DNA from: Cyanobacteria bacterium P01_D01_bin.156
GTDB lineage: Bacteria > Cyanobacteriota > Cyanobacteriia > Phormidesmidales > Phormidesmidaceae
Length of the DNA: 64,000 nucleotides
Reading direction: 5' to 3'
Assembly (NCBI GenBank): GCA_039024555.1
Contig: JBCCQQ010000027.1
Coordinates: 12,038-76,037, forward strand
This document shows, in pieces, positions 8,360 through 13,099 of this stretch. Below the pieces are notes generated by a model that saw only the letters and a list, made by a program, of their open reading frames with translations, made no database searches and was not told the DNA's origin. A program made the translations under genes and the position numbers. How positions within the stretch are numbered: the first letter of the stretch is position 1; each line of letters starts with the position of its first letter.

Positions 8360-9305
8360 TCGTTATAGTTTGCCCATGATTGCTGCTCTGGGGATAGCAC
8401 TGACTATGCCTCAATGCACAATAAGCTCTAGCCTTGAACCGCAGGAGCCTATTTCTAATCTGAAAACATTGCCAAGTCTCACTCAGCCTAGCTTCGAGCA
8501 ACAAGCCTGGCCCAATGAAGTCCAACCAGTTGCCCAAATTTATATAGTCACCATTCCGCCCGGTCATCCCATTGATGTGGCCGCTAGCACAGACCTGCAA
8601 ACCGTAGAAGAGTTTGCAGCTGAACACAATGCATTAGCTGTGATCAATGGAGGTTTTTTTGACCCAAACAATGGACAAACCACATCTTTTGTGATGATTA
8701 ATGGCGCACTGGTGGCAGACCCACGGGAAAACAAACGACTCATAAACAATCCGGCTCTAGATGCCTACATAGATAAAATTCTGAATCGATCTGAATTTCG
8801 CCGTTACCAATGTGGGGATGACATTCACTACGACATCACCTTTCACAATGCTGCGTTGCCAGATAACTGTATTCTCCATAGCGCCTTGGGTGCTGGTCCC
8901 CAGCTACTACCGACCGATACGTCGCAGACAGAAGGATTTACCGATTATGCCGACGGTCATCTAACTCGGGATGCCATTGGTAGCCAACAACCAAACGCCC
9001 GTAGTGCCGTCGGCATTAAAGAAGACGGCACCGTGGTCTGGGTTATGGTGGCTCAAGCTGATGCAACAGGAGGCATGACGTTAGGCGAATTAGCAGAGTT
9101 TATGGCTAAATTAAACGTTCAACAGGCCCTGAATCTAGATGGGGGCAGTTCCTCTTCCCTAAACGTGGACCAACAGTTGAACAGCAGCGCAGCATCTTCT
9201 ACAACAGTCTCAACTACTAGAGCCCCCTCAACTTATCCATCCCTCAATTCGCGTCCAGTAAAATCCGTTTTGCTATTGCCCCAACAGTCAATTCCTAAAA
9301 ACTAA
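8346..9305 (+). CDS. Phosphodiester glycosidase (NAGPA-like) family protein
   Basis: INGGFFD, GAGPQLL, ARSAVG, ALNLDGGSSS motifs; signal-like N-terminus; 14-nt overlap with upstream GT2. Confidence 0.88.
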   Translation: MQQADRYSLPMIAALGIALTMPQCTISSSLEPQEPISNLKTLPSLTQPSFEQQAWPNEVQPVAQIYIVTIPPGHPIDVAASTDLQTVEEFAAEHNALAVINGGFFDPNNGQTTSFVMINGALVADPRENKRLINNPALDAYIDKILNRSEFRRYQCGDDIHYDITFHNAALPDNCILHSALGAGPQLLPTDTSQTEGFTDYADGHLTRDAIGSQQPNARSAVGIKEDGTVVWVMVAQADATGGMTLGELAEFMAKLNVQQALNLDGGSSSSLNVDQQLNSSAASSTTVSTTRAPSTYPSLNSRPVKSVLLLPQQSIPKN

Positions 9306-9343
9306 ACTCCCTAGAAACGGTTAAGTCCCTAGGGAGTTTAGTT
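9300..9343. terminator. Hairpin between convergent genes
   Basis: 15-bp perfect inverted repeat AACTAAACTCCCTAG / CTAGGGAGTTTAGTT. Confidence 0.7.
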
Positions 9344-9418: not shown

Positions 9419-9733
9419 CTAAGACGCCTTATCTTGGGGCCAAACTAAACCAAGCTGTTCTGGAGATTCAAGAGGTTGTACCCATAGAGTTGTACCTTGA
9501 CGGCCTACAACTTTAACATTTTCACCAATAGCGATGATGCGATCTCTGTTCGAACAGGCAAACCAATAAACGCCACAGAGACGAATACGCCCCTTTTTCC
9601 CAATACGGATAGGCGTTTCAACAACACCAATGCTTTCCAAATAACTCATCACGTTTGAAGATGGAGATGCATGCTTAGTAATGAGACAGTCTAAATCCAA
9701 AGACTTCTTCAGTAATGATTTCTTGAAATTCAT
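9419..9733 (-). CDS. NfeD-like C-terminal (OB-fold) domain protein
   Basis: GRIRLCGVYWFAC...IAIGENVKVVGRQGTTLWVQP matches the NfeD C-terminal pattern; no transmembrane segment. Confidence 0.75.
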   Translation of the reverse strand: MNFKKSLLKKSLDLDCLITKHASPSSNVMSYLESIGVVETPIRIGKKGRIRLCGVYWFACSNRDRIIAIGENVKVVGRQGTTLWVQPLESPEQLGLVWPQDKAS

Positions 9734-10000
9734 AAGACTGAAAAATCAACAATGCATTAAGTATGTCAATCAAAAGGCTTACTGAATTACCACCTTTTGA
9801 AGGTATTTATCTGACATCTATAAGAGTTTGCTTACAGAAGTAAGAACAAAGTATTGAAGCCCTTGAAAACTCGAAAAAGCAAAGCGTATACCGATCAACA
9901 GGAATCTCAATTGGTTGAATAGCAATTGTCGCTATTTTTGCCTAAACCTATAAATCCCTTCAATACAAAAGTCTCTAGATATGGTTTATAACAAGTTAGA

Positions 10001-12445
10001 GTGTCCCTTTTTCAGAACATGCCGACTACGCTAATACCCACTGATTTTCTCAAGATGTTAGCTAATGACTATAAACTAACTGCTTTTGAGACAGAAGCAT
10101 TTATTGCCCGCATGACTAACATGGGCAAATCAGACGTAATGGTTGCCGAGAATTTTCTCAAAATTACTAGAGAGAGATACAGCACCAGAATGACAGGAGT
10201 CTACAGAAAATTTAATGTTAAGGGTGAGGGAGCAGGGAAATCCACAACTTTATTCTTTAAAGTCGTTGAAATATATCAGAAAAGTGACCCTTCTGGCTCC
10301 TATGAAGTCACGATCGAGGCAGTAGATAAAATAGTTTCTAAAATCCAAGAAAAAATGCGACCTCTGATATTAGAAAGATGCGACTCAATGCGGATTTTTG
10401 ATATGAGCAGTCCAGTAAAAGTAGAAAATATATTTACTAAAGTTAGAGTAAGAAAAGAAATAAGCTCATATAGGAGTATAAGCATACCAAGACTTGTTGA
10501 AATATCATCTGACGATTCTAAATATGAGAATTACCAGTATTTATCTAGATATCAGGCATCAGGCCCAAAGATATCAGGAATTGATATTGTTAAAGCCAAT
10601 TCAAAATTAATAATCCTAGGAAAACCTGGGGCTGGGAAAACAACTTTCCTTAAACATTTAGCTTTACTTGCATGCAATCAATCAAAGGAGCTTTCTGGAT
10701 ACATTCCTGCCTTCGTACCCTTGAAAGATTTCTGTGCTCAAAATGAACAAAAAAGCCTTAAAGACTTTATACTTTCTGACTTTCAGTTTTATGGGGTTCC
10801 AGATAGTGAGCTAGAGGCAACCATCAAGAATGGTAGGTTTATATTCTTGCTTGACGGTTTAGATGAAATACAAGAATCTAATGCTCAATATATTAGAGGT
10901 GAAATAAGAAATTTATCAAGGTTGTTCCATCGAAATAAATTCATAGTTACATGCCGATTAGCTGCCCAGGAATATAGTTTTGAGAACTTTATTGAGGTTG
11001 AAGTTTGTGATTTTAATGATGAACAAATCAAGGGATTTATAATCAGCTGGTTTAAGGAAAGGGAAAGACCAGAACGTGCCCATGAATGTATTCAACGAAT
11101 TGAAAATGACTTAAGAATCAAAGAATTATCTACCAATCCCTTACTTTTAACTTTACTATGCATTGTATTCGGCGACTCACCAGGGGATTTTCCAGATAGT
11201 CGCTCTGAACTATATGAGCAAGGAATAGATGTCTTATTGAGAAAATGGGATGCAACCCGAGACATCAACAGAGCTAAGATTTACAAGAATTTATCTAAAC
11301 AAAAAAAAGAAGATTTACTTAGTCAAATAGCTTATAGCAGCTTTCAAAGAAACGAATACCTACTAAAGCAAAAAACAGTAGAGCACGAAATTAGAAACTA
11401 CATACTTAACCTGCCAAGCTCCACTCAGAGTCCTCAAACAGCTGATACAGATTGTCGAAAAATCCTTAAGGCTGTTGAATACCAACATGGTCTTTTAATA
11501 GAGGTAGCTAAGGGGATATATTCGTTCTCTCATTTGACTTTTCACGAATACTTCACAGGGAAAAAAATAGTTAGAGCGACTGGTCAAGAGAGTCAAGCTA
11601 TTGGAATAGATTCTCTGGTAGAACACATATTCGAATCTAGATATAGAGAAATCTTTCTTCTAGTTTCATGCATGCTGCAAGATGCGAGCTATCTTATGCA
11701 GAGCATGAAACAGAAAAATGATCTCATCGTTCAAGATAATGAGAAGTTCAAGAATTTTTTCCTCTGGCTAGATAGAAAATCTTCTTCTGTAATAGATTCA
11801 AAAGAGATTGAGAACATTGAAGACCCAGAGAAGCTTAAATCTCATGGCCAAATACTTTATTTCCGTCTAGCAATTGAAACGCGCGACCTCAAGAAATTAA
11901 AAAGAGTAAAACATCAAAAAAACTTAGACTTTGAAACTGACTCCCTTCTAAGTATATGTCTACAACAAACTCGGTTTATCTTAGAGTCTACAAGTTTTTC
12001 TTCTGGGTTACTTTCGGAAAAAGAGTTATCCAATCTTAGAAAAACAATAAGCGCTGAGCATTCCTTTGTCATAAAAACTCTTCAGACTTGTAACAACTTA
12101 GTATTTGATGGCTTATTCAAGGCTAAGCTATCTGAACTATGTAGTGAGTTAAAGTCTGCTGAGAAAACTATAAACTGGTGGCTTTCTAATGGTAATACTT
12201 GGATTAGAGAACTCTCAAGCGTCATGCTAAATTTTAGAGACATCGGCCAGCAGTGGGGATTTGAACAGGATGAGCTCAAAATTCTTAGAAAATACTATGA
12301 TGCCAGTCAATTGATGGAAGACTGTCTCAATCAAGAATGCTATGTCAATAGCGAAATTCGAATAACCCTTACTAATAATATTTTATTGCCTCTATGGATT
12401 AATGACTTGAAAACTCGAAATAAAGATTTTAGTCCTGAGAACTAA
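10001..12445 (+). CDS. NACHT-family STAND NTPase with N-terminal HTH-like region and C-terminal helical domain
   Basis: Walker A GKPGAGKTT, Walker B FIFLLDGLDE, IVTCR, TNPLLLTLLC, YSFSHLTFHEYF; AT-rich; start GTG 10001 or ATG 10019. Confidence 0.92.
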   Translation: MSLFQNMPTTLIPTDFLKMLANDYKLTAFETEAFIARMTNMGKSDVMVAENFLKITRERYSTRMTGVYRKFNVKGEGAGKSTTLFFKVVEIYQKSDPSGSYEVTIEAVDKIVSKIQEKMRPLILERCDSMRIFDMSSPVKVENIFTKVRVRKEISSYRSISIPRLVEISSDDSKYENYQYLSRYQASGPKISGIDIVKANSKLIILGKPGAGKTTFLKHLALLACNQSKELSGYIPAFVPLKDFCAQNEQKSLKDFILSDFQFYGVPDSELEATIKNGRFIFLLDGLDEIQESNAQYIRGEIRNLSRLFHRNKFIVTCRLAAQEYSFENFIEVEVCDFNDEQIKGFIISWFKERERPERAHECIQRIENDLRIKELSTNPLLLTLLCIVFGDSPGDFPDSRSELYEQGIDVLLRKWDATRDINRAKIYKNLSKQKKEDLLSQIAYSSFQRNEYLLKQKTVEHEIRNYILNLPSSTQSPQTADTDCRKILKAVEYQHGLLIEVAKGIYSFSHLTFHEYFTGKKIVRATGQESQAIGIDSLVEHIFESRYREIFLLVSCMLQDASYLMQSMKQKNDLIVQDNEKFKNFFLWLDRKSSSVIDSKEIENIEDPEKLKSHGQILYFRLAIETRDLKKLKRVKHQKNLDFETDSLLSICLQQTRFILESTSFSSGLLSEKELSNLRKTISAEHSFVIKTLQTCNNLVFDGLFKAKLSELCSELKSAEKTINWWLSNGNTWIRELSSVMLNFRDIGQQWGFEQDELKILRKYYDASQLMEDCLNQECYVNSEIRITLTNNILLPLWINDLKTRNKDFSPEN

Positions 12446-12589
12446 CGTAATGCTCTTGATTTTATTTTTCAGAAATCACCGTGAATCATTAAAAACCAGG
12501 CTTTAACTAACTCAAAAAAATAATAGTCGAGCAAAATCATTTATTGTTCACCATAAGAAGTATTCAACCAACATTATTATGAATATTTC

Positions 12590-13099
12590 TCATGCATCAA
12601 CTTGTTTCAAATAGCCTAACTGAATAAAGACCCAACAAATCATGCCGTAGATTATCCCTGCTGGAATCAAGATTTTATACCCAGGGTCAATAGCAACCTG
12701 CATAGACGGTGGAGTAAGAATCAGCCCTGACACCATAGAAACCACAACAGATGTCAGGACAAATGTGCAAGAGCTGATAACGCCTTGTCCTGCCAAGGAT
12801 TGTTTAGCCCGTTTAGCCTTACGAAAAAGCCAAGGTGTTTTAGCAACCAGGGAACTGACCCAAGGCCACAGTCGCATGCCAACGATAAATGCGAGAGGAA
12901 ACATTAGAAACCCAACCAAACCACTCAATTGGGAATATGGAGCGACCAATGCAGTCAGATGAGTGCCACCGAAACTACCGCCAAATAGCAGTATTGCTGA
13001 GCTAAAAAAATTGGCTGTTCGCTTTGGGATTGGGGTCGGTGGCATGTACAAAAAAAGTTGGCTGCTGATACTATCTACAGCCGCTCTCAAGCCACCCAT
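12590..13099 (-). CDS. Hypothetical membrane protein (about 4 TM)
   Basis: Four hydrophobic segments; true start may be ATG 13045. Confidence 0.6.
   Translation of the reverse strand: MGGLRAAVDSISSQLFLYMPPTPIPKRTANFFSSAILLFGGSFGGTHLTALVAPYSQLSGLVGFLMFPLAFIVGMRLWPWVSSLVAKTPWLFRKAKRAKQSLAGQGVISSCTFVLTSVVVSMVSGLILTPPSMQVAIDPGYKILIPAGIIYGMICWVFIQLGYLKQVDA

Follow-up and report, generated by a model that had tools for sequence, protein, structure and literature searches.

A soluble NfeD gene divergent from an XssQ-related STAND gene: a candidate regulator–target pair of cyanobacteria

MalT and the SARPs bind tandem direct repeats and control divergent promoters. MalT, AfsR/large SARP and GutR are named as a class of STAND transcription regulators (10.64898/2026.01.04.697583), and XssQ (Slr5058) of Synechocystis sp. 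PCC 6803 is a STAND activator of the synechan genes, for which knockout and electrophoretic mobility shift assays show gene activation via single or tandem boxes (PMC8205485). Bacterial NACHT proteins also protect against phage, and effectors of the winged helix-turn-helix (HTH) type have been proposed to trigger transcription (bioRxiv 10.1101/2022.07.19.500537). The short NfeD proteins described have 140–150 aa, three hydrophobic stretches and a place in SPFH operons (PMC2636767), and the OB domain of Staphylococcus aureus NfeD binds flotillin and itself (PMC11222466). Here we analyse two head-to-head genes in a stretch of 64,000 nucleotides (the window) of contig JBCCQQ010000027.1 from Cyanobacteria bacterium P01_D01_bin.156, one encoding a small soluble NfeD-like protein and the other a STAND protein with an N-terminal HTH, a NACHT domain and an NCH2 domain. 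Our analysis suggests that the STAND protein, a relative of XssQ, likely binds phased repeats in the spacer and likely activates the facing NfeD gene, a reading to which we give a probability of about 0.6.

The XssQ-related regulator and the soluble NfeD protein

The NACHT protein is 28% identical to pSYSM XssQ over 620 aa (E 2e-75). For this comparison SGL_RS00265, a pSYSM NACHT gene flanked by a sugar transferase gene and two response-regulator genes and with a divergent gene opposite, was taken as slr5058/xssQ from its position and from the cluster description in PMC12267927. In the numbering of the 814-aa open reading frame (ORF), Pfam places the NACHT NTPase domain at aa 203–353 (E 1.6e-16; positions 10607–11059, forward strand) and the NCH2 C-terminal helical domain, which XssQ also has, at aa 709–797 (E 4e-22; 12125–12391, forward strand). 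Walker A (GKPGAGKT, aa 207–214) and Walker B (LLDGLDE, aa 283–289) are both intact and lie in columns that are invariant in 90 homologues, and the modelled fold resembles NLRC4/NLRP3. Among 7992 scored candidates, 2824 relatives were found at E ≤ 1e-30, the named ones being cyanobacterial, and the window's genome has 32 NACHT matches and 38 STAND-like ORFs. We infer that the protein would work like XssQ, through DNA binding and activation.

Pfam has no match to the first 90 residues. These align at 99% (hhalign) with the GerE-positive N-terminus of a homologue (L111), and the N-terminal family profile finds the genome's LuxR-like regulator ORFs weakly (E 2e-4 to 0.015), while a profile including two GerE-positive members matches GerE 1fse at E 2.7e-6. 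The model has four helices here, and the domain (aa 11–99; 10031–10297, forward strand) is predicted to be a LuxR/GerE-type HTH. The reading frame is open from GTG 10001, but the more likely start is ATG 10019 because all 13 N-termini in an alignment have this Met and the protein collection has the 808-aa form. The sequence-only reading, made earlier from the letters and their ORFs, was right that two ORFs stand head-to-head at this place and that the NACHT ORF is real, but its 814 aa and 267-bp spacer should probably be 808 aa (10019–12445, forward strand) and 285 bp.

The small gene (9419–9733, reverse strand) encodes a protein of 104 aa. Pfam NfeD (PF01957) matches aa 31–87 at E 8.9e-11, above the cut-off, and AlphaFold predicts a barrel of five strands (about aa 30–88), for which the six best PDB matches in Foldseek are all NfeD-family proteins, e.g. 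3wwv (1.6 Å over 61 columns). The highest 19-residue hydropathy is 0.69, membrane-type NfeDs mostly reaching 2.0–2.8, and the protein therefore has no transmembrane (TM) helix. None of the genome's six Band_7 matches lies on the window's contig, so the NfeD-like protein without TM helices and without an SPFH gene nearby, as first proposed, holds up. In this the soluble NfeD breaks the rule of NfeD as a membrane-anchored SPFH partner. An amphipathic N-terminal anchor was considered for the soluble forms and rejected, the hydrophobic moment averaging 0.54 in 56 proteins against 0.51 ± 0.13 after shuffling. Nonsynonymous and synonymous divergence from the orthologue in L040 are dN 0.27 and dS 1.85, and pN/pS is 0.15 in a paralogous Microcoleus NfeD set (57 non-independent comparisons to one reference); judged by these ratios, the small gene is under purifying selection. 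A search of the protein against 50,697 phage records gave no match.

In a tree of 124 NfeD cores the QmcA-type membrane forms are one clade and the soluble forms lie outside it, although this tree, built on about 60 columns and with no support values read, is too weak for origin claims. Soluble NfeD paralogues can be numerous, with up to 11 NfeD matches per genome. In one locus (L247:5466-7474) six soluble NfeD genes stand in tandem opposite one 818-aa STAND gene, and another (L108:4427-6418) encodes a 663-aa protein with an NfeD-like domain at its C-terminus and an N-terminal region that we take to be CHAT-like.

Recurrence of the pair and repeats in its spacer

Two of the six NfeD matches in the window's genome adjoin Band_7 genes, and the other four are TM-less. 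All four TM-less genes lie opposite a STAND gene at a distance of 268–938 bp, no NfeD neighbour was found at the remaining 34 of the 38 STAND-like ORFs, and as background only 24 of 4970 ORFs in this genome (0.5%) are opposite a STAND gene within 1.8 kb. For a first survey, relatives and the class were searched, and the short-frame matches together with all matches of new multi-hit genomes were fetched, single-hit genomes being left out. Proteins with a hydropathy below 1.95 and fewer than 200 aa were called soluble, two borderline cases being put into the class 'other' by hand. This gave 95 soluble NfeD genes in 36 genomes, 89 of them evaluable after six at contig edges were set aside; the window's own genus contributes 50 of the 95, and three loci with tandem copies were counted twice. 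A STAND gene lies opposite in 50 of 89 cases (44 directly and six with one small gene between), another regulator in 17 and neither in 22; outside the genus (n = 42) the corresponding counts are 18, 8 and 16. No membrane-type or other NfeD is opposite a STAND gene (0/29 evaluable). The soluble pairs are spread over 24 genomes and eight families. A second set, 40 stretches from the order of G063 chosen after the hypothesis had been formed and mostly picked for short frames, gave a weaker result, with a divergent STAND gene in 10 of 39 units. Soluble NfeD genes are thus strongly but not obligately linked to STAND genes, and the sequence-only reading, which had called for a neighbourhood survey, is borne out in that the pair is a recurrent unit.

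The STAND partners have NACHT, NB-ARC, AAA_35 or AAA_22/16 cores and GerE, Cro/XRE, EAD4 or unassigned heads, and the non-STAND partners include PadR, OmpR-type and other response regulators, TetR, RHH, XRE and GerE-TPR proteins. What these partners share is a DNA-binding function rather than a family, which is the pattern expected of a regulator and its target; the occurrence of soluble NfeD opposite unrelated regulators also suggests that it is an output under regulation and not a dedicated antitoxin. A named example is on plasmid pLBX of Leptolyngbya boryana, where LBWT_RS31325 is opposite LBWT_RS31330. The scan of named genomes, which consisted mostly of one Microcoleus orthologue set, served only for tests of selection and for neighbourhood counts. 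In these Microcoleus loci two soluble NfeD genes form a constant tandem pair, and the slot that follows it (L164-L234, downstream of 4800) varies in content. In distant genomes an 855–890-aa protein with an XRE-type HTH and helical repeats but no P-loop is repeatedly opposite soluble NfeD (L070:5203-7869, L114:5656-8259, L238-L241), and genes with sigma-70 region 4, resembling extracytoplasmic function sigma factors, occur between or opposite soluble NfeD genes (L082:4461-5060, L260:4126-4869). A family of helical companion proteins of 400–480 aa, with no convincing Pfam match, has four paralogues in the window's genome and is found at L152:1140-2399, L038:7781-9031, L102:6851-8125 and 10 more loci; an ESM Atlas search with a 419-aa member gave nothing usable.

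The word GCTTACA is present in 10 of 11 same-genus LuxR-NACHT pair spacers, where it often forms arrays of 10-bp period, but in only one of 29 other spacers, and GTTATA is present in nine of the 11 spacers of the same group. We also used an unbiased repeat test, which asks for at least three copies at a 10–11-bp period, on 33 pair spacers (seven near-duplicates having been removed from 40). The test was positive in 10 of 33 pair spacers compared to six of 400 control divergent spacers, and at six other periods in none of the 33; the double period of 20–21 bp gave four. All ten same-genus homologues with the window-type HTH have two to six same-strand copies of CT[T/G]AC[A/G], compared to zero or one copy per strand in seven more distant LuxR-STANDs, and different HTH heads associate with different repeat words. 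Two homologues, L037 and L042, have arrays of four copies that are still intact. In most of the same-genus homologues the array is about 180–210 bp from the NfeD ORF start and 170–390 bp from the STAND start. The spacer of the pLBX pair has palindromes rather than direct repeats. Phased 10–11-bp repeats also occur upstream of HTH-STAND genes that lie opposite a 73-aa hydrophobic ORF (G000 C2:243626) and a 135-aa ORF (C97:14890); neither small ORF is an NfeD, which suggests further target families.

In the window, the divergent spacer (9734–10018, 34% GC) holds both predicted promoters. The predicted operator array (9778–9836, forward strand), defined by the motif from homologous spacers, consists of three CT[T/G]AC(A) copies at 9778, 9811 and 9831, whose gaps of 33 and 20 bp would keep them on the same helical face; compared with the arrays of homologues it is a decayed one. 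Just before the NACHT gene there is a TATAAC (9987–9992, forward strand), a putative −10-like element common to homologous spacers. A scan of the spacer for sigma-70 promoters and terminators found nothing, with no complete sigma-70 consensus. Control of the shared promoter by the HTH, which had been proposed from the sequence, fits the phased repeats and the relationship to XssQ.

The two genes form a cassette that varies between genomes. Of 21 congeners, 16 were evaluable in that both flanking genes are on one contig; the NfeD and NACHT genes are both absent from 15 of these, with adjacent flanks (8 of the 15 checked directly), and both present at the same site in the remaining one (G015). 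The cassette holds these two genes only, the glycosyltransferase genes nearby belonging to the conserved backbone. Both ends are closed by hairpins, which are likely terminators: a perfect 15-bp inverted repeat between convergent genes at the left edge (9300–9343, z about −6) and an inverted repeat at the right edge (12552–12594, z −3.6). Low GC makes a gain of the cassette more likely than repeated loss, in an unrooted comparison. The AT-rich DNA first described applies to the NACHT gene (35% GC) and the spacer but only mildly to the small gene (42%; genome 47%). Positions 13000–64000 of the window are ordinary cyanobacterial housekeeping DNA (FtsH, Fpg, SigF, ChlH, DnaK, LipA, Mdh).

Proposed mechanism and rival readings

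In the mechanism that we propose, the C-terminal region would sense a signal, which would lead to nucleotide exchange and oligomerisation of the STAND protein. In the oligomer several HTH heads would come to lie in register with repeats spaced by one helical turn, and the protein on its phased boxes would activate the facing NfeD gene, which is probably its target. The small protein, an OB barrel with no anchor, may then act as an adaptor or a decoy towards partners that bind NfeD, for instance SPFH cages. What it binds is the weakest step, and SPFH cages, although the best guess, are less likely than not.

Several results weigh against this reading. The HTH does not align with that of XssQ, the alignment starting at residue 115. 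Arrays are missing from 23 of the 33 pair spacers and adjoin the STAND start in some other groups, and the unbiased test is negative for the spacer of the window itself (two copies, p 0.8). The window's genome has four phased triplets with the motif pattern, of which only the window's is non-coding; as the last base of the motif and the set of gaps were widened after the window had been seen, this triplet is suggestive only. Phased repeats also precede two HTH-STAND genes of the same genome that have no NfeD, so that arrays mark such regulators generally and may serve autoregulation. In the second set, 29 of 39 units have no divergent STAND gene, and one of the ten partners is a TIR-AAA_35 protein in which no HTH was found. 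The HTH-NACHT genes that occupy the variable slot in 22 of the 71 Microcoleus loci differ from one another and lie downstream, not head-to-head. As SPFH genes do not adjoin the soluble NfeD genes, the SPFH target comes from family knowledge only. Finally, across families and in non-independent pairs, NfeD similarity correlates better with similarity of the NTPase core (rho 0.31) than with that of the N-terminal head (0.04), which fits a protein-level tie.

This last result bears on the possibility that soluble NfeD is a direct partner of the STAND protein, acting as inhibitor, ligand or adaptor and thus as a feedback element from the facing gene, as MalY and MalK are feedback partners of MalT. 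Beside the correlation across families, 13 of the fetched loci encode, downstream of the STAND gene, a helical non-Pfam companion of 400–430 aa; P0017, P0043 and P0134 carry a fusion of the N-terminal part of this companion with tandem NfeD domains (E 1e-11 to 4e-15). Through these fusions NfeD is connected with STAND operons at the level of proteins, which keeps the direct-partner model alive and is a further point against the regulator–target reading. However, co-inheritance also accounts for the correlation, the regulators opposite this NfeD family include non-homologous ones (PadR, response regulators, TetR, RHH), and its genes may stand alone or in tandem groups with as many as six members; that one 60-residue barrel binds all these partners is improbable, and we regard direct partnership as unlikely. 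The dedicated ligand or antitoxin that the sequence-only reading offered is likewise disfavoured by a protein that faces several STAND classes and unrelated regulators, and often none (22/89; no divergent STAND gene in 29/39 units of the second set). Complex prediction for the NACHT and small proteins gave a score of 0.00 in a run whose controls were not folded, and it was counted neither way.

The cassette could also be an anti-phage system of the NLR type, in which the NACHT protein senses infection, the small protein is effector or antitoxin and a transcription step could be included. In favour of this, the cassette has AT-rich DNA and a patchy distribution, and the pLBX pair (L282:6770-10591) adjoins ABC-three-component and restriction-subunit genes. 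Neither protein has a close PADLOC or NCBIfam defence model, though, the best being EruA at 42 bits against a cut-off of 1000. Among 117 neighbours at 28 pair loci, nine have PADLOC matches at E 1e-20, a count that has no control set, and all nine are to generic kinase, ABC/AAA-like, TPR or single-domain models. There is no catalytic effector domain, and XssQ, the one tested relative, controls polysaccharide synthesis; a role in defence, as first suggested, thus finds little support and appears quite improbable. Alternatively, the small gene could be a passenger, with soluble NfeD and STAND genes sharing variable islands and the repeats serving only autoregulation of the STAND gene. Many soluble NfeDs do lack a divergent regulator, and in Microcoleus the NfeD tandem is constant, the STAND genes downstream of it varying from locus to locus. 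A passenger would not be expected to show the specific orientation seen in 44 direct head-to-head cases and in four of four in the window's genome, the joint gain or loss of both genes, or the constant distance of the array to the NfeD gene in the window-type group, and we find this explanation very hard to credit.

Position among known systems

Because the regulator half belongs to a described class, as a relative of XssQ, the whole is not the undescribed system for which the sequence-only reading had proposed it as a candidate. It is rather a known regulator class with a recurrent, expanded and apparently undescribed target family. A literature search gave no paper combining NfeD, cyanobacteria and NACHT, nor, among the papers listed, a description of soluble NfeD beside STAND genes, which Green et al. 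2009, the Cell version of Kibby et al. and the bioRxiv supplements could mention. NfeD occurs 0 times in PMC7159879, and the supplement of PMC13156569 has slipin-linked NfeDs only.

Cyanobacterial NACHT and NB-ARC paralogues are numerous and often read as immune receptors, and among the papers cited only XssQ has a tested output. A recurrent target gene with a predictable operator array would be a ready read-out, as a small-gene reporter, for what these sensors respond to, and NLR-type sensing would be linked to an unstudied protein family. As the cultured strain L. boryana has a pair on pLBX, the questions about regulator and soluble NfeD are directly testable. A wider and speculative picture, which we hold to be unlikely, is that in filamentous cyanobacteria the NfeD barrel has become a large, free and inducible family of decoys or adaptors, by which NLR-like factors with their own operator codes remodel SPFH cages; if true, NLR-type sensing would lead directly to membrane microdomains.

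With the short NfeDs (NfeD1a/NfeD2, such as E. coli YbbJ with QmcA, Bacillus subtilis YuaF and S. aureus NfeD with FloA) the small protein shares the C-terminal five-stranded OB barrel, but the soluble form has neither the N-terminal hydrophobic stretches nor an SPFH neighbour, is present in several paralogues per genome and stands opposite regulators. The bNACHT anti-phage proteins (Kibby et al.) resemble the large protein in their NACHT module with an NCH-type C-terminus and intact Walker motifs and in being expanded in cyanobacteria, whereas the effector here is a predicted HTH and not an enzyme, and no defence-island setting was apparent in most of the 28 pair loci. MalT, AfsR and GutR likewise combine a STAND switch with an HTH, but the protein described here has NACHT instead of the MalT/AP-ATPase core, an N-terminal LuxR head and another target. 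XssQ has the same order of N-terminal HTH, NACHT and NCH2 with a homologous body, and its gene too has a divergent gene opposite. Its box is AAGTTnnAC compared to the predicted CT[T/G]ACA here, and the cassette has no XssR/XssS two-component or polysaccharide genes but a soluble NfeD gene opposite instead. Given the differing motif and an alignment that begins only after the HTH, the NACHT protein is best placed as a relative of XssQ and not as its orthologue.

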